Shown piece by piece: positions 2,871-35,904 of a stretch of DNA of 35,904 bases. Source of the stretch: Dimargaris cristalligena. Its lineage: Eukaryota. The first letter of the stretch is position 1; each line of letters opens with the position of its first letter. Made by a program: the position numbers and the translations under genes. The stretch covers positions 1 through 35,904 of the forward strand of contig ML002376.1 in the NCBI GenBank assembly GCA_003614675.1, in the 5' to 3' direction. Below the pieces are notes generated by a model. It was given only the letters and a program-made list of their open reading frames with translations, was not told where the DNA came from and did no database searches.

Positions 2871-3822
2871 TAACCACATGGGTGTGAAAAGCTGGTACTG
2901 GCACCATTTCATTTGTTAGGGAGACGGCACTACTAGCTGGTCACATTTCCAGTATTTGCATGGGTGGGGAGGGGAGAGAGGGTAATGGTTTTCCCACCAT
3001 ATACACGAGTAACGACGTTTCTTAAGTATTGCTGGCGGGGTTGTGTGTGTATCGCTTTATTGAATCGACACTCCGCCAATTTATATATACATATGGATTT
3101 CGGCTGATTGGATAAAGTGGTACGCCGCCCATGTAGAGCGGCCCCAGGGTTTGGTAATGTTCATGGGGAGGAGTAGTAGGTAGTAGTAAGTAACATTTTA
3201 CTTGGACACTGGCGAGTGGGAAATGGGGGTGGTGGGTAGCTAAACTATGAGAGACTGCATATCGGGCTGGTGCCTCTTTAAGAAAAAACGGAGGTCGAGT
3301 GCGGAGTAATGACGAACCTTTTAATACTGTCTATACTGCCCGATTATTCAGTTAACTCTTCTGCCTCCATGATTAAAATAGGGCGTCATTGAGGTTTCAC
3401 TAACCCGAATTTTGTGTATTCGCGCGAGTGGGTGTGGGCGGTTTCCCCTCTTTTCTGGAACATCGTTTATTGTTATTCGGCGGTTCTATCGACCGAATTG
3501 CGTGGTCATCATTGCGGCTACATTGGCCGCCTCCCAAAATTGGCCAACCAGCCCTCCTCTTAACTCCCACACCACCCTCCCTCTTCTCTCCAACCACGTT
3601 GGCTTTTCCCTCTTCCCACTATTTCACCCCGCATTTGTTTGAGAGAACAAAACTACCCTGCACGTCTATTCATATTTCACACTACCTCTTTCTCTTCTTC
3701 TCTTTCCACTTGCCTTTTCCTATTCTTCTTGGTTTTTTATCCGTCCTTGAGTCTATATCCCTTACTTGTACTCTTTTACTCCCTCCCTCTGTTTTTTATT
3801 TGTAAAATTCTTGTATTTGACC

Positions 3823-5041
3823 ATGTCTAACTACGGCAACAACAATAACTACGGCGGTGGTTACCAGGGCGGTGCGGCCAACGACTACACCGGTGGTGGT
3901 AGCTCGGGCAATTACAACAATAACAGCAACAACAACCACGGTAACGATGACCATGGTGACTCCCAGGACCGGTCGGGCATGAGTTCCCTTTTGTCCATGG
4001 CTGGTCAATTCATGGGCGGCAAGAATAGCAACAAGCAACAGCAACAGCAACAGCAGCAGCCCCAAATGGGCGGCGGAAACTATAACCAAGGGGGCGGTTA
4101 TGGCGGTAACTATAACCAACAGGGCGGTGGTGGTTATGACCAGCAGCAGCAACAGCAGTTCGGTGGTAATGGTGGTTACGGTCAACAACAGGGCGGTTAT
4201 GGTGGGGGCAACCACCATGGAGGTGGCTACGGTGGTGGTAACCCCCCTTCGGGTAGTTATGGCCAAAGCGGTGGCAACAGCAACAACAATCACAGCAGCA
4301 GCAACAATAGCAATAGCAGCAGCGGTGGGCTTATGGCTATGGGCCAGAACATGGCCATGCAGTTCTTGGGCGGTGGTAAACAGCAGCAGCAGCAGCAACA
4401 GCGACCTCCTTCCCCGAAGCAGGATTTCTTCTCGAGTGTAAGTATATGAGCTGTATACTAAAATAGGTGTGCGAGGACTGGTTTTACTCGGGACCGTGTT
4501 TGATGAGCCTGTCCACGTGACTGATATAGCCTGTAAGGGTAATGTAGAGGCATCGTTATGTATTTCTAATCCACCCCAATGATTCATGTATGAATGCATC
4601 TCTATATGTCCTTTATGACCATGCTGGCCTTTCGGGACCGTTTATCAGATTATCAGCAACGTAATGGGCAGCGGCAAGAAGACCAACATGGACACCAACC
4701 AAATGGGACAGTACCACCAGCAGGCCTACCAGTCCAACAACAATAACAATAATAGCAACAGCGGCGGCGGTGGCCTTATGGCTATGGGTCAGAACGCGCT
4801 GGCCGGCGCGGCGGCCATGCAGGCCCTCAAAATGTTCCAGGGCGGCAGCGGTGGTGGTAGTAGCGGTGGCAACTCCCAGTCGGGCCTAATGGACATGGCC
4901 ATGAAGGAGGCTATGAAGCTGTACTTCAACCAGAACAAGGCGCGCGGGGTGGAAAACAACGAACAGGAACAGTCAGAAATTGCGCAAAAGGCCGCCCAGG
5001 CCGCCATGCAACTGTTCCAGAACCAGGGAGGTCGCCATTAG
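3823..5041 (+). CDS. Gly/Asn/Gln-rich protein with C-terminal domain like the fungal 'beta-flanking' (beta-fg) family; exons 3823..4437 and 4649..5041, 335 aa
   Basis: ATG at 3823 follows a pyrimidine-rich leader. Phase-0 intron GTAAGT(4438)...TTATCAG(4648) joins FFSS|IISNVMG. The C-terminus HQQAY...GAAAMQALKMF...SQSGLMDMAMKEAMKLY...AAQAAMQLF matches my recollection of the beta-flanking protein motif. Confidence 0.8.
4438..4648 (+). other. Spliceosomal intron (211 nt)
   Basis: GTAAGT donor, TATCAG acceptor, frame-preserving. Confidence 0.85.
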
Positions 5042-6186: not shown

Positions 6187-9100
6187 ATGTCCCAGGGTCA
6201 GTCTGGTAGCAGTTCGGGGGGCCGTCGGGCCAAACCTGTCTTTCTAAAGTAAGTCCCCCCCTCACCCAGCCACCTTTTTGCGTTAATTGGTCCAGATTCC
6301 TGTCGTTCGATGGTGGCCGTGACTCGTGTCCCCTCTGGACCCTACTATTGGCGAGGTAGGCGCCCACGCCCAGGGCCGCTCTCTAGAGCAATTGACTATA
6401 TGCATGGCCTATACCACACATCTCCTCTGTTATAAGTAGAGTACGCTGCTCCTAATTTCCCCCCGCATTAACCCCCCTCCACTTTCTCCCCGGCTGTACG
6501 ACTCTAACCATTGCCACCATGCCTTATTCTAGGGAGCCGTCTTCCCTCGAGTCCCTCACTTGGGTATGGTCGGACCTCACTTCCCGCGTGGCCCAGAGCC
6601 TCCCGGCGTCGATAGCCCGCCCGGGACGCTGGTCCGGCTCGTCCCCTCAAGCCGTCCCCCCACCGGGTCCTCGTGTACCGGCTGGCCCCTTATATGCCGC
6701 CTCGATGCAGCCCACCTCACCCATGCCCTACCACCCTGCGTCGGCCTACGGCCCGCCCCGGCCCCCGTCTTTAGCCTACGGCCCTCCAGGCGAAGTACCC
6801 CCCGAATGGGACGCCGCCCCCGTACTGTACTCCGCCTTCGAAGCCTGGCCGCGGGACCCCCTGGCCCTCAATTCATCCCTGGCGGCCTGTCTATGTTTGG
6901 GCTACCCCGACGGTTTCCAGGTGTGGGATATTTCCGACATTGACAATATCCGTGAGATAATCTCCGTGCGCGATGTGGTGGAAAGGGTTACGGCGATGCG
7001 CTACTTGCGCCCTTCCCCCAAATGCCAAGCCAAATTAGACGATGTCCAGCTTGCTAGCCTGCCCTGGGTTGCCTGTGTGCACTCCGCTGCTCCCAGCGGC
7101 GACAGTGAACCCCCGTCCCCTAACCCGACCCGCTATTCCCGACCAATTGCTGTAGGCAACTGCGTATCTATTTTCTCCCTATCCCAACAGACCCTCCTTC
7201 ACTCATTTTCGTTCGCCCCCCATACCATCATTGAAATGACCCATAATGACCTCCTCATCGCGGTGACCCTGGATAATGGTACCCTGCACCTTATTGATAT
7301 CACCCGCCAAGAAGTGGTGGCCCAGTTCGACCACGTTTCCCCAGTCCCCGACGAGGTGAGCACCTCCCCCCGAATTGCCTTGGGTCCCCGCTTCCTGGCC
7401 TTTCCTACTTGCCAAATAGCTCCCGTCAAGGTCAAGCTTACTCCCATTGATGACCCCGCCTGGACTCCGCAGTCCCGCCATGCCGTCGAAAAGGTGGCCA
7501 AGGATGTGGTCAACGGCGTCAAAGTGTTGGGCAGTTTTGGTTACAAGACCCTCTCCAACTACTTTTCCCCCGCCCCATCCACTACGCAGTCCCCGTCCCT
7601 CACGTACCCACCTCCGTTGGCCGGATCCGGTCGCTCTGGTGGTCCCGTCAAGCCACCTCCTGTCTCGGACCCCGACGAACACCTGGGCAATGTCATTGTG
7701 TATGACCTGCAGGAGGTCCTGGACGCTTTACCAACAGACTCTGCTTCCACCCCGCTGGTCACGGCCGCCCCCGTAGCCCATTTCGTCGCCCACCGCCACC
7801 CTATCCATTGCTTAGTTTTTAGTCCCGGCCAGACTCTACTGGCGACAGTGTCCACCCAGGGGCATGCCCTTAATGTCTTTAGTCTACTGGGCCGTCATGA
7901 CCGTGGCTTCGCCACCGGCGGACCGGGTCACCACCCCGCCGTATTCGATGCCGTGCGGGGTATTCGCCATCTGTACCGCCTTGCCCGGGGTATCACGGAC
8001 GCCCTGGTCGAGAGTATTTCGTTCAGTCCCGATGCCCACTGGGTGGCCGCCAGTACCAGTCGAGGTACCACCCACGTGTTTCCTATCAACCCCCAGGGCG
8101 GCCCGGTCGACGCCCCGGCCCATTTGGGCCCAGCCGCTTCCCTTTCTCCGCTTGACGCCGGGTACAGCCTGTCAAACGGTAGCAGTGTGTGGAAATCCGG
8201 TTTGACCAGTGTTCCGGCGGTGGTCCGCATCAAACAGCGGGCCCCATTGGCTCCCGCCTCCCCGTTACCCCGGCCTCCTTCCCACCCGCACTACCCGGAG
8301 GACCTCGGCGTGTTTCCCATGGAGCTGCCGTCCACGGATCCCTATTCCATAGGTTACCCGGCCATGGGCCATCGTCCCCCTCAGTCCCCCCCGGCCATCC
8401 GAGGCAGTCTGGTCACCTACTTTGGTCCCTCATCGGCGGGGGCGGAATGGTATGCCACTCTGCATGGCCAATACTACCCTAGCACTTCATTCGGAACCGG
8501 TAACCCAACCTCTACAGTGACCCCTCGTCACCGGGTGAAGCAGTTGATCCAGCCCCTCCTTCTGTGGATCTTCCACCCCAATGCTACCCTAACCCTGCAC
8601 CGCTTGACCCCTAGCTGTGTAGCCCAAAAGGGTAAGCACGCCGCCGCTTTTCACCCCCGCTACACCTTGGCCGTGAACCGCGACGACCTAGCCGAGTGGG
8701 ATGTTATCCGGCATTCCACCTGGGCGACGTTACCTTGGAAGGCCCCCCGCCAGGCCCCCGCTAAAAATCCCGCCCCAGGACCTAGTACGACGGCCCCTCA
8801 GTCAGCTGCTATCGACTGGATGGTCCATATGGAATTAGTTACGTGCCCCCTTATCAATCCGGAGCCCCTCTGGGCCCAGAGCCAATTCCAGTTCCAGTGC
8901 ATTATCCCACCGACTCCCACCACCCCGACGGCCCGCTTCTCCGGAAGTCCAGCGCCGGCCCCGGCGACCGAACCCTGGTTCCCGAAGGTGCGGGTATGGG
9001 AATTCAAACGGGGCGCCCCTCGACCCTATGGGACGGCATCCATGGACCGCGGCGACGGGGACAACAGTCCCTACAGCTACCAGGTCCAAGATCGCCTACA

Positions 9101-9578
9101 CAACGCTATGAATAGCGTACTGGATATCCGTTACCCATTGGCGGTCGAGCCCCTCTTGTCCCCCGAGATTGCTACCGTCTCCCCCGCGTCCGACGATTTT
9201 CTGGCTGTGAATAAGCCCCGGCCCATCCCCTTCCTGTATTCCGAACAAGTTCCCTCCCGGCCCACTCTCCCTGGCGAAAACGGACGGCCCGAATCCCTTT
9301 TGGCCCACGTCTCGGAGAACGAGTCGATGGATGAACTGGCCTCGGATTTAGATGAGGTCCATGTTTACTCCCCTGCCCCGGAATCGCCCCCCACCTCCCG
9401 GCGGAAGAGTTACAGCGCCGGTGAACGGGGCGGTGGCTATCGGGGGGAGCCCGTTGGCCCGGGGGCAACCAATGGAAGCCGCGCCCCTGATTCACTGTTC
9501 CCCGAATTGAGCGAGGACGACAGTCTTCATGCCCTAATCAACTTCGAGGCCGACGACCAAAAATCGTCGGCCGAATGA
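6187..9578 (+). CDS. BCAS3: BCAS3 / ATG18(F-H)-like WD40 beta-propeller autophagy protein; exons 6187..6248 and 6533..9578, 1035 aa
   Basis: Motifs LGYPDGFQVWDI, IALGPRFLAF, VAHFVAHRHPIHCLVFSPGQTLLATVS..GH..NVF, HLYRLARGITDA..ESISFSPDAHWVAASTSRGTTHVFPINPQGG and W..HMELVT. Intron GTAAGT(6249)...CTCTAAC branch...TTCTAG(6532) gives AA|G=Lys in frame. Ends TGATGA. Confidence 0.88.
6249..6532 (+). other. Spliceosomal intron (284 nt) in BCAS3
   Basis: GTAAGT donor, CTAAC branch point near 6504, TAG acceptor, phase 2 consistent. Confidence 0.85.
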
Positions 9579-23678: not shown

Positions 23679-25774
23679 CTAGGGTAGCAAGACGTCGCAG
23701 ATGCTGATATATGATCCGTCATCGGGGTCAAACGATGCACACTTCGCAATCTGTATGCGGCCAATTCGGGTAGTACCGAAGTTGTAGTCACCCAACTGGT
23801 CTAGGATAGGTCGGGCATTAAAGTCCAATTGACCCACGGAGATCTTACGACTATTGGCCACCGAGCGTGGAAGAAAAGTCGTATTAGCCAGGGTGGCATG
23901 CAGCTAATGGGGTGGGAGATGGATGGGGGTATAGACGATGATTGTATCAGGTCGCAGAACAGGTTTCGTTATGGATTCGTTAGTCGCAAAGAAGGGCGAG
24001 TAATGTGCAGCACGAAGCCCAGTCGCCTTTTTTTTAATGTTTAGTCGATTCGCTAAAGTATGGTAATGACATACTTTGTCTATAAAAAGGCGATAAAGTT
24101 TTTCTCATAATACTTTCGGGACCATTCAGCAATCGGCCCAATTGGCAAAGGGGTAAGTGGCAATGAATAAGGGGTATGGAAGACATGTTTCAGATACCTT
24201 GAGTTCCACGATGTCATCAGAAACCAAGAATCCGGCATTCTTGAAGGTTGTCAGAAGGTGTTGGCAGACTTGTTTCAGCCGATTTTCACTGTCATCCTTG
24301 ACGGCCGCATAAAGTACTTTGCAGTGGTCTAGAGTCAAATAGAAAAATGCACAGCGGTAATAGCCGGCCCCAAGGTGTTAATAAGGGTCTGAGAAAGTGG
24401 GCGGTGTCCAAGTAAGTTGTGTGATTTAGTATTGATAGCATTGGACTGGAGAGTGATTAAACTAAGATTCGGCCGATAGACAGAGGCTAGAATCGTCGCT
24501 GGATGTTGCTTAGGAAACCTGGGATTACGGTCAGCACAGCAGCAGCCTTGAATAGCGCGGACCCAGTATTCCATAATGGAGATTAAGAGATAAAGGGATC
24601 CAAATGCCCCAGAGATCTCCAGCTCAAAAAGTCGATGGCAGCAGCAAATAAAATGAAGGCACATTTGTGTCCCAGGACCGATAACGTCGATATCGATCGC
24701 ATTGGACTCGCACCCCTTGACCCCTTCTTCCTTCCCACTACTAATATTGGTGAACAACTTATACCACAATATCCCAGGGAAAATGGGAGTAGTTTATGCA
24801 ACAGCATACTTAGTATTCACTTACCGGGCGTGCCTTTCATGATCCGGAGTCCTTCCAGCTGAATCACCAGAGACCGGGTTCCGAGTAGGTCGTAGATGGT
24901 GGCTGAGCAAGACCGGAGCGTTTCGCTTGCCTGTTCCATCTCCTCCGGGCTGGAGAGCCGAAGCATGCCGATGGTTAGATGGACGCGCTCACTACGCATG
25001 TAAAGGCGGGGGTTGAGTTCCAGTGGACCTAGATTAGGGTCAGCGGGGTCGACCAATTCCGTAGCGACCGCGGGTGAGTTGCGGTAGCAGTTTAGAGCGG
25101 CTTCGCGAAAGAGGCGGACCTTGTCCTGTAGGGCCCTCTCCTTGAGCGGCAAGGATATGAAATGGGTAAAGGGACCACTGGCCTAACCAAATCGGATATA
25201 TTATACAAAGTTAACGGCATGGATAAATAAGTCGTATTAATGCAAGGTTGATTATTTACATTTAGTGATTCTGGAGTAAAGAGAGTAGGCCAATGGGGGC
25301 CGAGTGGTAAAAAGGGTTGAGGCTAGTCACCATTCGAATCGTACTTACTCTGGAGGGGCTTTTCCGGTCGGCGGGTTGCAACTCGGTACGATCATTGGAT
25401 ATGGCGGATGGTCCTAAGGCAGTATGGTAAATGGACCCAGTAGCAGCAGAGAAATTCGAGGTACATTCGCCCTAGTATGTTCGATAATGAGTCGATGATA
25501 CCACTTGGGCGTTTGCTTTCGCATGGGTCGTTTTTCTTCTCCCAAGAACCGATCGAGAGTGATACTGATTATCAAGTAACAATGTGATACCCAATGGTTC
25601 GGAAACCGACTTACCTGCCGAACTTTCCGAGGGGCCGGCTGAACATAGTGGCGAGTCGGTGTCGGTCTCGGTTCTAAAAAGAGCCCGGGGCTTGCGGGGA
25701 GCTGGGGGGTTAGTTGGTGGGCTGAATACCCGGTATGTGCGACCCTGGACAGTGAGTAGTTTGATATGGTTCAT
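23679..25774 (-). CDS. ASCC1: ASCC1 / AKAP7-type 2H phosphoesterase (2',5'-ligase-like); exons 25774..25615, 25413..25349, 25182..24825, 24328..24198, 23903..23679; 312 aa
   Basis: ASCC1-like N-terminus (LLTVQGRTYR), FTHFISLPL, HxT motifs VHLTIGML and KLHATLAN, VLYA, and ARPILDQLGDYNFG...DGSY. Four GT-AG introns (GTAAGT x3, GTATCT) are all phase-consistent; total 939 nt. Confidence 0.85.
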
Positions 25775-26092
25775 AGTAAGGACGCCGAAAAGGTCGGGTG
25801 GGGGAATCCAGAAGAAAACGATAGCGCGGTGGACCGCAAGCGGTAGGCAATGGTTGGAAGGTATAAAAGGTGTCGGTGAGTAAGTAGAGCCTGGTGGATG
25901 ATTAACTCGGAGAAGGAAATTACCAGGGGGGGGGGTGACCACCACTCTTCAGCTACCGTAACATCGGTCAGAGGTAGACTTCTGGGGTAAACTTCAGAGA
26001 CCGGCTGGCTTTCTACACCCCAAGGCCTACCAACTCGGCTTGTTCTCTATACGTCTCCTCTGTTTACACACTCTTGGCCTCGAAAATGCACC
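25775..26092. promoter_or_regulatory. Short divergent (bidirectional) promoter region between ASCC1-like and WRAP53-like genes
   Basis: Only 318 bp between opposite-strand start codons. Confidence 0.6.
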
Positions 26093-27499
26093 ATGGAAAC
26101 GCTGGAATCCAATGCAGTCGACTCCGCCCCTACTGATCCAAGTTCTCTCGCACCCGCATTCGAGAGCTCTGACCCCAATGACCAGCCCAGTGGCCTACCA
26201 TGGTCAGCCGTACCTTGGCCAGCTCTACTATACTCTCCGACTGGAGACCGCCCCATTCTAAGCGCCTCGACGGGCGCCCGGTTCAATACTACCGTGGCCG
26301 AGGGACTAAGACTCCATCCCCCTTCGAATCGCCCGGGTCAACAACATTCACTGCCCAATTCTGACGGAAGCCCCTCCTCCCCCCTTCCCACTTTAAATAG
26401 CGGTCAGCACAATAACTTCTTCCAAAGGGCGACCTGGTCACCCGATGGCTCATTTCTTTTGACTAGTTCCAATGACCAGTGCGCCCGGGTCTTCCAGCTC
26501 CCCACCGATACGCTGACTACCGCCGCTGCTACTGGTTCACCAGAGCCCCTCGAAGCCTTCCAATGCCTCCGACAGAGCCATGGCATTCTCGCCCTGGACT
26601 GGTACCCCCATGTGGATTATTACCACCCGTCCACCTGGTGTTTTGTCTCGTCCACCCGTGATCACCCGGTTCACCTATGGAATGCCTACACCGGCAAGGT
26701 CCAGGCAACCTACTGGGCTGAAGATGACAAGGGGCAGAAGATTGCGGCGTATGCGCTGGCGTTCCACCCTGACGGCCAATCATTATATACCGGCTACCAC
26801 GACGCGATCCATATTTTCGACGTTCAGCGGCCGGGGATGGCCCGGCAAACGGTCCGCCTCACCCCTACCCGCAACAGTAAGGCCGGGCAGAAGGGTATCG
26901 TATCCACCATAGCTTTTAATCCGGACCGATCGGGGCTCTACGCCGTAGGCACGTTCAGCAATTCCGTGGGCCTCTACGCCGACACGGCCCCCGGTGCCCT
27001 GCTCCATCTCAAACGACCGCCCATCGGCAACGGTCTGAGTCAATGTCAGTTCTCCCCCTGCGGCAATTACCTCTATTTGACCGGTCGGACCCACTACTCA
27101 GTATTCTGCTGGGATATTCGCCAAACGGGGAAGTTCCTGTTTTGTATTGATCGGACGCTCGGTACAAGTCAGCGCATTAGTTTTGACGTGGATCCGACGG
27201 GCCAATTTCTGGCTAGCGGTACCCGGGAAGGAACGGTTCAGATCTACGATATTAGCGGACCGCTCCAGGCCCAACCGGTCACTAAGGATCCCCTCCTGGT
27301 ACAATCATTTCCGGGCCACCATGATGCTATAGGTGCCACCCAATTCCACCCAACTCTGCCTCTCATGGCCACCTGTTCGGGCCAACGGGAGGCCCTGGAT
27401 GATGATGACGATGATGACGACGAAGGCAATACGCGTTCACTAGACAACAGCGTACGGATCTGGCGTTGGGATGCGGCGGAATTTCCCGAAGTCACCTAG
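26093..27499 (+). CDS. WRAP53: Telomerase Cajal body protein 1 (WRAP53/WDR79/TCAB1; Swt21-like) WD40 protein, 468 aa, intronless
   Basis: NNFFQRATWSPDGSFLLTSSND, DWYP, SSTRDHPVHLWNAYTG...ATY, AYALAFHPDG, IFDVQRPG, GQKGIVS.IAFNP, CWDIR, QRISFDVD, FHPTLPLMATCSGQR, DNSVRIW. Confidence 0.92.
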   Translation: METLESNAVDSAPTDPSSLAPAFESSDPNDQPSGLPWSAVPWPALLYSPTGDRPILSASTGARFNTTVAEGLRLHPPSNRPGQQHSLPNSDGSPSSPLPTLNSGQHNNFFQRATWSPDGSFLLTSSNDQCARVFQLPTDTLTTAAATGSPEPLEAFQCLRQSHGILALDWYPHVDYYHPSTWCFVSSTRDHPVHLWNAYTGKVQATYWAEDDKGQKIAAYALAFHPDGQSLYTGYHDAIHIFDVQRPGMARQTVRLTPTRNSKAGQKGIVSTIAFNPDRSGLYAVGTFSNSVGLYADTAPGALLHLKRPPIGNGLSQCQFSPCGNYLYLTGRTHYSVFCWDIRQTGKFLFCIDRTLGTSQRISFDVDPTGQFLASGTREGTVQIYDISGPLQAQPVTKDPLLVQSFPGHHDAIGATQFHPTLPLMATCSGQREALDDDDDDDDEGNTRSLDNSVRIWRWDAAEFPEVT

Positions 27500-28502
27500 T
27501 AATATCTGATGAAAAATGTGCATGGGCCTTTGGCTGGACTTTCGAAACACCATTGATACCAAGTGAGGCTGTTTTATAGATGGATAGGGGTAGCGTCTCT
27601 TGTGCGAATGGGGATGCCCGACTATCGAGATGCCATCGTATCCGCCGATTACGAGCTCGGCTATTTGTGGAGTATTTCTTAAATAGAAATTAAACGACGA
27701 ACGACCCAAATTTACACCATTACTGCTCAGACTGCAAACTCTACTACCGTTGATTAGATGAGGGGGGGGGGGTCCCTCTGGCCCCTTTACTACACCATTC
27801 CGCTTAATCAGGAGCCATAGCTGTGCAATGGTTTGACGTGGTTTTCGCTAATAATTGGGCAACGTGAAACTCCCCATTAATCTCACGCCACGCCCCTTGG
27901 CGGTTTTAGATGGACTAGGGTAGGCTCATGATATTAAGAAAAGCCCCCCTAGGTAAGACTATCAACCGGCGAAGATACTCCCTCGGCCCGATTTTCGTAA
28001 TCAAACCTGTTCTAACCTACAAGATGGTTTAAGACCTGGTCTTATACACACACGAAGACATATGGCCGTGCCCCTCTCAGTTGCAAAGATGCAGAAGTTG
28101 GCCCCAGACACGCCCAACTACATATGATTGAGTCACCTTGATCGATAAGATGTATGGATAGTGAGTAGGCTTAGCTCGATCAAGACGCCAATTGGACCGG
28201 CGAAACGGCCACCGGTGGATTACAATAGGGCCCGTCTGTTTCAAATCGAAGCGCGCCTATACTTCCTACCGCCATATCGTGTTGGTAAGACCTACAAGGT
28301 TTTACTGCGTCTCCTCATTCTATAATGGGACTCGTATCACTTGATTAGCAAGGGGAGGCATAATACGGAGGTTCCGATTGAGCAGGGCTACTAATAACAT
28401 GGCCCACTCAGAGACAGTCGAACTCGGCCGCCTTACTAACCAAGGAATCAATTCGAAACAAGGAAGGTTTTACCCACCGACAGCGGAATTGACCGGATTG
28501 GG

Positions 28503-28510
28503 TATAAATA
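28503..28510 (+). promoter_or_regulatory. Candidate TATA box
   Basis: TATAAATA about 120 nt upstream of ATG 28625. Confidence 0.55.
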
Positions 28511-28624
28511 TAAGTCGGAATCCAGCCATTGGGGATCGGGTTTTTTCCCTTATACGTTAGTTATCCTCATTACAACTCCCCATTTCGCATACCCCTCCCT
28601 CTCTCATCACCATCCACTTACACA

Positions 28625-28996
28625 ATGATCGGAAAGTCTTACGCCGCTATTGCCCTGGCCACACTCGCCGCCGCCGCGGTGGTGAACGCTCAGTCGACCG
28701 TCACCAACATCGAAACTTCTACTGTCGCCGGTGGTGGCTCGCAGAGCACCAACGGCAGTGACGATTCCGCTGACACGACCTCGGTGACTACCGAAACCAC
28801 CAGCAACTCCCCCACCAGCCAACAGGCCTCCACCGACGTGTCCACCAAGACCGTCGAGCCCTCCGACACGGCTGCCGTTGCCACTGAGACTGATGTGGTT
28901 GCCAGCGGTGCTATGGGTCTGATCAACGGCAACATGGCCGCCCAGGCCGCCGGTGCCGCCGTCGTGGCCGGTTTAGCCTTCATCTCCTACTTGTAA
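28625..28996 (+). CDS. Small secreted Ser/Thr-rich, probably GPI-anchored cell-surface protein, 123 aa
   Basis: Signal peptide MIGKSYAAIALATLAAAAVVNA|Q; S/T/D-rich body; omega-site-like SGA followed by a spacer and terminal hydrophobic AAVVAGLAFISYL; strong C-ending codon bias. Confidence 0.85.
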   Translation: MIGKSYAAIALATLAAAAVVNAQSTVTNIETSTVAGGGSQSTNGSDDSADTTSVTTETTSNSPTSQQASTDVSTKTVEPSDTAAVATETDVVASGAMGLINGNMAAQAAGAAVVAGLAFISYL

Positions 28997-31324
28997 AATA
29001 CCACCGTAATGGGTGATATAGACCGATGAAGTAATTATTGGACTTACCTGTCGTGTTCATTAATAAATGGACCATTTGCATCCAGTTTCCATTTTGAATT
29101 TCTCGGGCCGGCCCACGATGTCCCCCCCCTCTACTAACGATGTTTAGGTGGTGTAGGTGGTATAATAAGCAAGGGCGGCCCAACGGGTTTGAAACCAGTT
29201 GGTTTGAGACCTGATTTAGGGGAGTATATACGTAGTGATTATAACAAAACGACTGAATGACCCAATTAATGAATAGGGGTGCTTTTAGGTCTCTGGTTCG
29301 GTTTTAGATGGTTCTTGGCGGCCCTACGTGGCGGACACCATTTGGGAAAGGAGACAAATTGAATAAGGCTAGTTCGGAAGTGGATAGCAGGCACATTATA
29401 TATTATATACGAATAGGTCGAGTCGTGGGAATTGGCTGGTCTACATATAGGGAAGGGTAAAAGTAGCCCAAAACCATGGGACAGGTGCATATATTCACCA
29501 GACCCCCAATGCCAGACAGGCTAGGCGGAGTAAAGATCAGTTGCCAGTGGCAAAGACAAGTTGTTTGTAATTCGGAGTAAATAAAGGCGAGAAATTCTGC
29601 GGCTGGAAGGCCTGGAAGAATCGAGTGGCATGAGGTCACTGCCTCCCTTATGCAGGGTTAATGTGGGGAGGGTGGGTGTATCTGCGCAGACATGTGGGGG
29701 GGATAGTAGCATTACATTATAATGCCCTCTTTTCACGGCTCGCCCTCATCAAGCACACATGTGTATTTTTATGGTGAACGGAGATTGAAGGTGGGGTATA
29801 GAGCCCGATAAAGGTCGTTGAGTGGTAGGAGGTGGGGTCGATGGTCATGTCTGGCGAACAGGTGACGAGGTGAGGGAGGAGGGCACATGTGCAGCAGCCA
29901 TACCTCGCAAGTCCTCACAAATCCAACAGACTAAGATTTTTGGTGAACAGCACTGGGAATAAAAGGCTGGCTGGTGGGGGGGTATTTAGTAGGTGGCCCA
30001 GACAGGGTAAAAGGGGCTAATTAAGGGGCACACTAATAATGGGTATAATGATATAGGGGCTGCCCTAGATAGTATGTGAGATCCCCTCCATGCATCTATT
30101 AGACACGGCGGGGGTTATGATGGTGGTCCCTGTCCAGCTTGATGGACCTGAAATTATTGGGTTTGGCCTGCTTTGTTTCCCTTGGGGGCAGCCAGCCAAT
30201 CACGGCCGTCGGTGTGCGTCTTCCAACAAATCGAGGCCCAAACCCAAACATAAACACAGCCGAGAGAGCCAAGTCCGGACGAAAAATCACTAATTGGTAG
30301 TAAGTGCGGAACCGGGGTACCTTAAAGCCACTCTACCCACGGTTGGGGAATGTCGAGTAAATTGTACTTTTTGCTGGCGTGTGGCTGGGTCGGTGATAAA
30401 GGAGGAAGTTGACGCTTGGACAAGATCAATACGCAGAAGAGGGCCGTTTTGTTCGATAGGCCTGTAGGAGTTAGTGTAGTGTAGTGTAGGGAAAACGGCA
30501 GCTACATCTACATTTACCTGCGCAACCAGGCAGACAACAGAGAGAGGCGGGGCCCATTGTCCACTCCCCCCCTACAGTGCCTCCTGGCATTGGGAAATCA
30601 GAAGGCGGGGGGTGTTGATACAGTGTATGCGCGAGCGAGTCGCTTGTATGGTTTTTGCCAGACGTTAAATGCTATATGCACTTTCCTGCCTTTTTCCTGA
30701 GGTATACCTCCTGTATCCGGCGGAGTTGGTTCTACTTTCTCTTTTGTGTTGGCTAAATTCGTCGACTTTTCTATATTCCGGTTGGTTAACAGACAACCGG
30801 CGCCCCTGCTTACCATTCCTTTCTTTCCTGCCCTATTCTGTCCATTACCTCAGTCGGTTGCGGTTTCCTTTTTAACCTACCCAAGCATTCCTTAACCAGC
30901 CCTAGCCGTGGATTCCCCCTTCCTTATTGACCATTGTCGATTCCTTGACCCCGTTTTTCATTTTGCTACGCGTATGCTGGTGTTCGCGTGGGCCGTTTCT
31001 GTTGTCGTAAACCCACCGTGTAAAATTGATACGTTAAAGTTGTCTGAATTCTGCTCATTCGAGTTTGGTGCCGTTGTTGAACCCACCGCATATAATATGC
31101 TCAGTCCCCCGGCCGTTGTGGGTGTCTCAATAATATTAGCCCTGTTTTTAACTTCTCTTTCCCAGCTGTGTTTTCGCTGCTTTGTACCTCTTGGTGTTTG
31201 TTCTTCTAAGTATTCCTTATTCCTATTTTTGGTACCCCCCTCCCCGTATAAGTTGTTCCCTCAGAACTAGCCTCCAAGCCGTAGTATCGTCCTTCGTATC
31301 TGCGCCACCCTTTCTCAGTTCCCC

Positions 31325-34300
31325 ATGCTCTCCCGCTTTTTGGGTTCAGCCCCGCGGGACGACCCTTCCGACTCGAGTCACTCCACCAATAGCCTGGCTG
31401 ATTCCCTCGCCTCACACTACTCTCAGACTTCCTCCAGCCAACAGGGTCTCAGCTTTAATCTGCCGTCGGAGCTGTGGACCAATGCTCGGCCCGAGGCTGT
31501 AGCCGTTGTCGAATCCAGCGAGGGCAGCGCCTCCACATTGACCACTTGCGCTCCGCTCTCTAATACCTCATATTCCCCCTCATCCGTCACCCCCGGAAGC
31601 TCGCCCAATCCCTCCTTCGATCCGCTGTCCCCCGTTGTGTTTTCACGGTCGCAGGACCCGTTGGCCCCCCCAACTGCTATTCGGACCCGGGCACCTAGTC
31701 CTCTCACTAACCCCGCACCGGCTTACGATAATGAATTTTTGATCAAACATTCCAGTGCGCATTCATCAAGTCCCAGCGGCGCCACGGGCTTCCCCCCGGC
31801 GCCCGTCGTCATCAACAAATTCCAGTCGTTACCAGCTACTGCAACCGCCTATTCCAGCCTGTCATCCATATCATCCCTATCCCGACCCACGTCCGCAGCG
31901 GCTCGAGCCGCGGTGGCCGCCGCCACCTCTGAACACGGTCAAGTAGGTCCCGACTCCTCATCCTCCGAGTCTGAAGATCCCGCGCCTCCCCGGGAGTCCG
32001 ATCAAGCCGCATTACCCTCCTACGCAAACCAGCCCCGAACCAGCCCCCGCGGCCTAGAGAATTTACTGATGTCTACCTACTACCACCGGTCTGGACAGCC
32101 TCCGTCGGGCCTGGAGCCGGCCGGAATGGTCGGAAATCCCGACCCCGAGGACCCCTTTGATCATATTGCCGCGTCGTTTGAAAGTTTGAACCAGTCTATT
32201 CCCGGTTCGTCTCCGCTGCACGTCAACGAGTTTCTCCTTCAAACCAAATGGTTTCACGCCATCGCCAATGGTCAACTCATCACTGTAACCAGCCTCCTCA
32301 GCTCCCACCGCCCTCTGATCAATGCCCGCAGTCCAGTACCCACCCCGTTTCACAGTTCCATCATTCGCGATGCGAGTCTTTATCTCGGTGAGGACACCAC
32401 AGGTATGGATGGTCTACAAGTGGCCCTGATGCACTTTTCGGCCACCCAGTGCGGCCTTTCCCCCGGCGCAAATCGGCGGCCCGAGGAACTTGAAACCCGA
32501 GCCGCTGTACTACACGCCCTCATCGATAACAGTTGGCCGGGCGAGCTAGACAACCACCGGTTTGGCCGGATGCGCAATACCGCTTTGCACCTGGCCGCGT
32601 TTCTAGGTGATAAAACGGTAGTCAAGCGGCTTCTCGACCAGGGGGCTACCGCCACCATTAAGAATCGCTTAGGCTACTGCCCCAACGAAGTGACCGAGAA
32701 TGTACACATTCGCGATAGTCTTGAGGAAACAATGCAATTAGAAGACAGTGGCCGGCGACCCCAGCATCGCTTTCGGCATGATATTATCACGGAAGAGGAA
32801 GGTGTCGCTATGCTGGTGAACGAGGCCACTGATCGGCAACTTCCAGTGCGCCGAAGCGCCGCCGACCGCTCTCAATTCGGTATGAGCGACTCTGACGGGG
32901 ACTCGGATCGCCATTCCCGCGATCATGTCAACCAGTTCCGCTCGGCCAGTGACCTTGATTCGAATGAAGACCTAGATGATGATATAAGTGCCGGTGACCC
33001 TCCACTTAGCCTGGGAGACCTGGACAGTCCCAGTTTGGTGGGGTATGATCAGAGCCCGGTGGGACGGCCAGGTCCCAGTTTGGGCGCCTATGCCCTCCAA
33101 CGAGCTACCCTGGTGGTTTCTCCCCTTGGTTACAGCAGCCGTACCCAGTCCCCCGTTCCTTATGAAGAATCATCCTCGTCCGCTTTGTTCTATAACGTTG
33201 ACGACTCGCCACCACGGGACACTGATCTACCTTCCCCGTTCGATACGGCCAGCTCCCCCATCAGACTTCATCGGCCTCCTTCCTCACCCAGCCATCCCTC
33301 GCCAACGACCACCGACAACCGGATGACCTCAACCGATGCCAGTCTATCTATTGATTCTTTCCACACCGCCTCTTCATCACCTCCCGGCTTCGCCCGACTG
33401 TCGTCCCCCCAAATCACACGAGTGTCCGCGACGGGTTCACTCGGTACTCCAACCCGACTAGTGGACCTTAAACGATTATCAACCGACTCCGAATCGCTGG
33501 GTCTTTTGAATGAATTGGTGGGCCAGCGGGTGGGTGAGCGACGCACCCCCTCCCCCTCATCACGAAACCAGCGCCTTATGACCCCTTCACCTCCCCTAAT
33601 TTTGGAAGCCCTAGCTGATCCAGTGCTCGACTTGGATACGCCCATCCAAATGACCCAGTCGACCCTAAGCCCCGACTCGCATCCCGCCGGCCCTAGCGTT
33701 ACTTTCTCGCCCAATACAACTGGCCATACCGGCCCTCGCGAACCTATCCGGTCCATCTTGCACGACCCCAGTCGGACTACCCGCCTGAGCCACACCGGTG
33801 AGCTTCCGGAAGGAAACCCCACTACTGGCAACCGGTCCTCCCTTAGTCGTCACTCCTCGAATGTGCGCTTTGCCGATGAATTGGAGGTGATTATCCCACC
33901 GGAGGACCACGATGAATCCATGTCGGGCTCCTACGGAGATGACTTGACGTCCATGGGGTATTCGGACCTTGATGATTTTATCAACGATGAACTGGGCAAT
34001 ATGTCGGACGAGCATTTGCACCCACTCGGTGAAACCGAAATGCCCGACTTACTTCGACAGGGCCTCTATCCCCGCTCCATGTCCCACTCCGCCATCTTAT
34101 GCCTGCCATCTGCGCTCGACGCCAGTGGCGATGATGACCAGGGCGCTATGGGCCACTACGGCAGCGTACCTAGTAGTCGGGGTATTTACTTCCCCCGCTC
34201 CAACAGCTACCAACCCGTTTTCCCCCTTCAGCCGGAGCAAACTCCCGAATCGAATCCCTCCCAGCATGACAGCTCCAGCTCGACCTCGTCGTCCGATAAC

Positions 34301-35904
34301 TCTGCTGCCAACCGGCGGGCGTGGTTCGATGTGGGATCTATGGACTCCCAAGACGATACCCAACTGCCCGCACAACTGACACCCCGGCCTCATCCACTTT
34401 CGGATGAAATGTTTCCCGATAATCTACCGTCCAGCCCCTCTGTGACTTCACAACTTGGTGCTCCGTTTGACCACTCGCGGGATCGATCGGATTCGTCGGC
34501 TCCTTCAAGTGGCTCAATTCGACGACCTCAACCCGTGTATCCATCTTTCCCATCCGACTTCGAACCCTCCCCCCCGCCGAGCTCTCTGCCCCGTACCGGG
34601 TCCTCACCCTACCGGGATGATAACCTGGGCCGTTCCTACGAACCTTCATCCACTTTCCCCTCGGCCCGCGAGTCCCCTTATTTGACAGCAGAGCCAGCTC
34701 GTGAGTCGAAAGAGCCACCTTTCAATTCGGTAGATGCCCTCCTAAACCGACTGGTCAACTCCCCCGAAATTTCTGTACGTGACCACTCACGGCCCAGCAG
34801 CCCTTTGACCCTGAGCGGCAGTTTAAGGGAAAGCGGTGCCCGGTCCTCGTTGGGCGACCGTCGGTTGTCGGGTTCCCCCGACCCGGGATTCCCGCGCAGT
34901 CAATCGCCAGCCCGGTCTCCCCTTCCGCCTCCCAATGTTCTACGCGCGGGGACTCCCACGAAGACTCTGCGGAGTAGTCCTCTGGCTATGCGGCCCAGCG
35001 ACAATCATGATGATGACGAGACCCCACCCTTAACTGCGGAACCTGTGCCTCCCCCACTTTTATTTGACTTCCCCGAACTCCAGCAGTCCCGTAATTTTCT
35101 CGCCAGTCGACGCAAACAGCCCAGTAGCCGACCCAGCTCGCCCCGTCCTGCCGAATCCGTTCTGGATGACTACATTGATAGTAGTATTCGGGGCACTCGG
35201 CCTTCTATCCCGTCCGTTGGATGACAGGACCGCCGTGGATCACTCGCCATCACCATCCCGCATGATCCGCCGCGAAGCAAGTCCCCTGCAACTCGGCGCG
35301 CTAGTCACTCGGCGGCGAACCAGGAATTGGGTAGGGAGTCTGCCTTCACGTATTCAAATGTCATCCGCAGTCACTCGCCTCTATTGACAAACTTGCTTCC
35401 AACTGATTCGCCCCAGCCCCGCACGCCCGATTTCCCAGGACCCGACTATACTTCCGGCCGGGACTCGCCCTCATTCCTGTCATCCTCCTTTGTCACCGCT
35501 GCCAACTCCGCCCCTTCATCATCGTCACCCTCGTCCTCGCTTACCCCGAGCGGCTCACGGCGACGTGCTGTGTCCCCTTCGTTGGATAACTTAGACCGCC
35601 GTCAACTCGTATCGTCATTTCTTAAAGAAAAACACGATGTTCGTGATTTGGGGTCGTCCACCTCCTTATCAAGCCCCATCACCGTTCCTCCCGGGCTGAT
35701 TCGCCAAACGTCGGCACGGGATCGAAGGGGCGGTTCTCCCACTCCGAGCAGCGCCGCTAGAGTGCGGACCGATCTGAGCCCAGCCATTCGGCCTGTTATG
35801 GGCTCCGGCCGTTCGTCGTCGCCCAGTCAAATATATGTGCGGCCCATGTCCCCTGGCATTCGCGCCCCCGAAATTCGCACACGCTCTCCCAGTCTAATCG
35901 GGCT
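31325..35904 (+). CDS. Large ankyrin-repeat plus Ser/Pro-rich disordered protein. 1299 aa to the TGA at 35222-35224, but the same frame stays open to the window end (probably 3'-partial)
   Basis: Ankyrin motifs at about 32249-32693 (WFHAIANGQLITVTSLL; RNTALHLAAFLGDKTVVKRLLDQGATATIKNRLGYCP). Frame 35225..35904 has no stop and the same S/P-rich composition. Confidence 0.8.

Follow-up and report, generated by a model that had tools for sequence, protein, structure and literature searches.

The protein considered here appears to belong with the anillin-like proteins S. cerevisiae Bud4, C. albicans Int1 and S. pombe Mid1 and Mid2 (bioRxiv 10.1101/2025.10.03.680245); like them, it is long and of low complexity, with a C2 fold and then a PH fold predicted at its end. 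In yeast, the septin double ring requires the PH domain of Bud4 (bioRxiv 10.1101/2025.10.03.680245). Two described ways past a stop codon are also relevant to the locus. In yeast, UGA-C is reported as the leakiest tetranucleotide, and readthrough is described for a CAR-NBA hexamer behind the stop (PMC4446449). In Fusarium and Neurospora, A-to-I editing turns UAG into UGG in the sexual tissue of Pezizomycotina; the edited stop is UAG with U at −1, and the account in PMC11156358 reports such stop-correcting editing for Pezizomycotina only.

We analysed a stretch of 35,904 nucleotides from Dimargaris cristalligena (hereafter the window), which is the whole of contig C169 in assembly G000. A frame on the + strand is open from 31271, has its first ATG at 31325 and meets a TGA at 35222–35224, giving 1,299 aa from the ATG. 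Behind the TGA, the same + frame runs for 226 codons without a stop to 35902, where it ends because the contig does. In the letters of the window, the original prediction of a single in-frame TGA inside a frame of more than 1500 codons is therefore accurate. The frame behind the TGA contains no stop, as against 5 and 8 in the other two forward frames, and a stop-free frame arose in a fraction of 0.0027 of 20,000 base shuffles. Its codon-usage score was +0.13 bits per codon, versus −0.42 and −0.55 out of frame. Thus, the 226 codons behind the TGA are coding, beyond what chance would give, as had been proposed.

We then compared the window with other DNA data. Positions 31300–35904 are matched by five public runs, all of DNA and none of RNA, which represent two samples in two studies. 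Four of these (X1, X2, X3 and X5) were compared over 25000–35904 as contigs, a form of data from which rare variants have been dropped. Position 35222 is C in all four compared runs, so that the codon reads CGA (Arg), and the depth of C equals the total depth in each (213.7 in X5, 365.3 in X1, 37.2 in X2 and 39.2 in X3, one contig each). The four runs represent at most two samples and two studies, and X3 and X5 are flagged as near-identical and possibly as the source of the window. Three of the four come from a sample marked as possibly the origin of the window DNA, so that even in this sample C is the majority allele. The remaining run, X4, had a shared-word fraction of 0.97; the expectation is 0.973 without the window-only bases and 0.979 with the T, so that its value fits their absence, as a weak indicator.

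A protein from another D. cristalligena assembly gave the same answer. P0024, a protein of 3,947 aa encoded on a contig of 83,035 bases, has SVGRQDRRGS across the site, with Arg at codon 1300. Over 1,526 positions it differs from the window frame four times (N410S, D784N, D1027N and stop-1300-R); N410S, D1027N and stop-1300-R recur in all four runs, while D784N is seen in X5 alone. Because the underlying variant at 33674 is common to P0024 and X5 alone, we do not treat these two as independent evidence. Positions 31325–35221 (+) thus encode residues 1–1299 of a P0024-type protein, with the exception of residues 410, 784 and 1027, and positions 35225–35902 (+) encode residues 1301–1526, as judged from protein-level identity to P0024, from motifs common with relatives and from runs that extend past 35903. 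Judged by the DNA data that could be compared, the organism does not itself carry the internal stop. The original prediction had named a sense codon such as CGA at 35222 as the observation that would speak against recoding, and had listed a CGA-to-TGA change or a base-call error as the mundane alternative; the four runs and P0024 favour that alternative. Most likely, the T at 35222 is a base error of the assembly and involves no programmed recoding.

The same data bear on the readings in which the TGA is translated. It had been proposed that programmed UGA-C readthrough or A-to-I stop editing gives short ankyrin-only and long isoforms. The base after the TGA is indeed C, the next codon is CAG and the frame downstream is coding, and in these respects (UGA, C, a CAR codon and an open coding frame behind) the locus resembles CAR-NBA readthrough (PMC4446449). 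Readthrough requires a genomic stop, however, and the stop is lacking from the DNA of all four compared runs. The UGA-C context is also cheap because C follows 486 of the 1,524 codons of the frame (32%), and CAG GAC departs at two places from the CAR-NBA hexamer as given in PMC4446449. Thus, the leaky context that had been claimed stands as far as UGA-C and CAR are concerned but does not extend to the hexamer. The relatives of the protein, which are gene predictions, are annotated as a single long protein. As for editing, the likeness to the Fusarium and Neurospora system lies in an in-frame stop within conserved fungal coding sequence; there, UAG becomes UGG in sexual tissue of Pezizomycotina (PMC11156358), whereas the codon of the window is UGA, with G at −1, the organism is a zoopagomycete and the genomic codon is CGA. 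A literature search found no report of readthrough in Dimargaris. With CGA in all four runs, the isoform proposal is unsupported, and we consider programmed readthrough or editing highly improbable.

Reassignment of TGA to an amino acid is hinted at by the single internal TGA and by nothing else in the data. That codon is CGA in the runs, and the gene's own end, on contig C1940 of G000, is a TGA that falls exactly at the end of P0024. The BCAS3-like frame of the window terminates in TGA as well, at 9578, as had been noted. We agree with the original prediction that a global reassignment is not at work here, and we assign this reading a negligible likelihood. The BCAS3-like frame itself (6519–9578, a WD40 frame; PF21034, E 4.5e-26) was not found as an exact sequence in the protein collection.

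Could an intron remove the TGA? The public gene model on contig C169, P0001 (1,469 aa, labelled 'partial', Dimargaris cristalligena), skips 159 nt at the TGA, and the junction implied by its protein is a GTCCGT…CAG 'intron' at 35212–35370 (+). Among the 48 in-frame GT-AG pairs that span the TGA, the best is a 348-nt pair at 35091–35438, with GTAATT as its donor, CAG as its acceptor and a motif that resembles a branch point; this is the junction that had been suggested for checking in cDNA. With CGA in the DNA, however, there is nothing to remove, and P0024 reads straight across. The 159-nt candidate has GTCCGT as its donor and no branch-like motif, and its removal would take out RRGS and QELG…FTYS, two stretches that P0024 retains and that can be aligned to Dispira simplex (E 1.7e-05). 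The 348-nt candidate would cut out the motif LQ.SR.FL..R, present in all three aligned relatives, which speaks against the suggested junction. The statement that no good short intron covers the TGA is borne out, since the best-scoring pair and that of the public model both cut residues conserved in relatives. An intron over the TGA is thus very unlikely, and the 159-nt gap is most likely a gene-predictor patch over a false stop. P0001 clusters with P0024 and with P0025, a 531-aa protein that has a PH domain and is encoded on a contig of 2,546 bases; P0001 and P0025 are two pieces of one 3,947-aa gene.

To which family does this gene belong? The domains that Pfam detected were an ankyrin repeat and a PH domain broken into parts. 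The ankyrin repeat (PF00023, E 3.3e-05) covers residues 418–447, at 32576–32665 (+), and lies within a conserved block of about residues 300–470; residues 301–450 are 56–57% identical in three relatives. A first homolog search with the ankyrin region gave 23 matches from 2,262 candidates, which comprised P0001 and generic ankyrin proteins only; it yielded no full-length relatives because these lay outside its length range. A second search had residues 3230–3560 of P0024 as the query, against 808 candidates confined to proteins of 2,170–6,908 aa. It returned 10 relatives from Dimargaris, Dispira, Tieghemiomyces and Coemansia, of 2,408–4,041 aa, under the NCBI name 'Bud site selection protein bud4'. 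All 10 relatives (gene predictions) match P0024 in its ankyrin block as well as in its C-terminal block, within one protein. Motifs behind the stop, SPSL.NL.RR.LVSSFL and YVRPMSPGIR, are common to relatives. Conservation of Arg1300 itself was not seen, in a poorly aligned column that is gapped in two relatives and different in a third. A further homolog search did not reach ascomycete Bud4 (3 matches from 279), and a PDB sequence search gave ankyrin matches only (best E 0.001). No Pfam anillin-homology family was found at E ≤ 1 in P0024, P0025 or 10 relatives; long insertions split the domain.

We turned to predicted structure for the C-terminal region. The model of P0040, a relative of 1,031 aa that is 50% identical to P0024, has a mean pLDDT of 45.5, with folded parts at 70–90. 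It contains a predicted C2 fold and then a predicted PH fold, with a long insertion inside each. Its best Foldseek match was PDB 4xoh, a contractile-ring anchorage structure that we take to be the C2-PH region of S. pombe Mid1 (E 5.4e-09). VIA-align gave Z 13.9 for PH and Z 11.7 for C2, and Z 12.3 for 4xoh over 241 residues with an rmsd of 13.9. The C2PH region of rat CAPS also matches the model (E 2.5e-05), so this pair of folds is not unique to anillins. A C-terminal C2 fold followed by a PH fold, the arrangement expected of anillin/Bud4/Mid proteins, is thus present in the predicted structure, and the gene product is most likely a membrane and septin scaffold of the anillin/Bud4/Mid type, as the model indicates. 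The protein would have an N-terminal ankyrin repeat, a long Ser/Pro-rich middle and C-terminal C2 and PH domains. The original prediction had advised a search beyond the window for a conserved C-terminal domain; P0024 carries this C2-PH end, and it is matched in 10 of 10 relatives.

The protein also departs from its better-known counterparts. The numbering of yeast Bud4 ends at 1447 in the preprint, whereas the D. cristalligena protein has about 3,900 aa (bioRxiv 10.1101/2025.10.03.680245). Unlike those counterparts, it has an N-terminal ankyrin repeat and long insertions in C2 and PH. Dimargaritales and Kickxellales have in common an anillin/Bud4-like protein of 2,400–4,000 aa, in which an ankyrin repeat stands at the N-terminus and long low-complexity insertions divide both C2 and PH (31325–35902 of the window together with contig C1940; P0024, P0026–P0035, P0040, P0041).

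The T at 35222 is not the only base peculiar to the window. Relative to all four runs, the window has four substitutions, at 32553, 34403, 35222 and 35272, and none in 25000–32552. On the + strand, the window has A for G at 32553 (Asn in the window, Ser in P0024), G for A at 34403 (Asp in the window, Asn in P0024) and G for C at 35272 (synonymous, Pro), each against four of four runs; at 35222–35224 the TGA stands for the CGA of Arg1300. Read from runs to window, the changes comprise one C>T at a CpG, one G>A, one A>G and one C>G. The four span 32553–35272 (uniform-point range test, p 0.05, borderline and post hoc) and all fall within the final 3,352 bases (p 0.009, post hoc). Three of the four alter the protein, versus 74% expected of unselected changes, at a very small n. 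Substitutions at 29904 and 33674 occur in run X5 only (that at 33674 also in P0024) and are ordinary sample differences. At 25925 and 27761, the length of a G run varies among the runs and the window.

As a control, we examined a 468-aa WD40 frame at 26093–27496, which shows no difference from a protein encoded on a contig of 83,035 bases. The cluster representative of this frame from contig C169 (P0037) has only 325 aa, so the public WD40 model may be short. Elsewhere in the window, a SET-domain frame lies at 108–2291 (PF00856, E 2.8e-08). Another frame, with 232 codons at 3751–4449, is of low complexity and rich in Gly, Gln and Asn, a composition that looks prion-like by eye.

The contig of G000 breaks inside the gene, and the runs continue beyond 35903: the run matches of X1, X3 and X5 stop at 35903 and go on with C, where the final contig base, at 35904 (+), is T. 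Residues 3366–3947 lie on G000 contig C1940 and differ from P0024 once in 582. This difference, at positions 1571–1573 of C1940 (L002), places Arg in G000 versus His in P0024 at residue 3889, and is an error or a sample difference. With P0024 as the query, residues 1527–3368 were not found in G000, an incomplete genome in which a blank does not equal absence. A P0029 query gave three matches in G000, none in the gene's middle, and a search of the kind that missed the middle recovered P0025 at 100%. A search of G000 for a second copy or allele of 34500–35904 gave one match only and thus no second allele contig.

These observations bear on the main rival to a base error, that the T is real but private. 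The CGA-to-TGA change is a common spontaneous one. A fresh nonsense allele, made by C-to-T at the CpG, could sit on a haplotype with the three other substitutions, in one cell or in a minority of nuclei, whose reads would have determined the consensus at this place. It is the main rival because contigs hide rare variants, so that minority alleles could escape the run data. All four window-only bases fall within 2.7 kb, in the manner of a haplotype. Cell-to-cell SNPs in D. cristalligena are reported as real, and single one-cell libraries are described with SNPs at 100% disagreement with the co-assembly, although the example gene given there is a different one (PMC6784888). On the other hand, none of the four window-only bases occurs in any of the four compared runs (two samples), there is no second copy in G000, and the haplotype looks unselected, since one of its four changes is a stop and two are missense. 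Moreover, given the need for the PH domain in yeast Bud4, such an allele should be harmful, and the 1,299-aa form should be without its working end. We therefore regard a private nonsense allele as unlikely. If it were true, the protein would be cut at 1,299 aa and the C2-PH end would be lost. The fuller version of this reading seems a little less likely still: a true nonsense allele with three linked substitutions in a minority of spores or nuclei, which would truncate the anillin-like septation scaffold before C2-PH and would be tolerated through complementing nuclei or a UGA-C leak.

A base error of the assembly is the reading that we prefer. C-to-T at the CpG turns CGA into TGA, the site lies near the assembly break, and the stop was patched by a predicted intron of non-consensus form. 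Codon 1300 of the organism would encode Arg as CGA, within a single frame that runs without interruption for about 3,947 codons. Near the break, thin coverage may have allowed errors from few template molecules into the consensus. For the chemical cause of the T, we infer as one example C-to-T deamination at the CpG of 35222 during whole-genome amplification; C>T deamination is named as a single-cell amplification artefact in PMC7923680. The mixed types of the four substitutions form no pure deamination pattern and count against deamination as the only cause.

Taken together, these results mean that lone in-frame stops near the contig ends of this assembly should be verified against reads before recoding is claimed. 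With a conserved stop in the genome, the locus would have been a rare example of readthrough, one that links the N-terminus of a cell-division scaffold to two thirds of the protein. If the minority allele were true, it would mean loss-of-function variation within a culture of a mycoparasite, and not programmed recoding. For the public models, the finding is a correction: P0001, partial and with a false intron, and P0025 belong to one gene of 3,947 aa.
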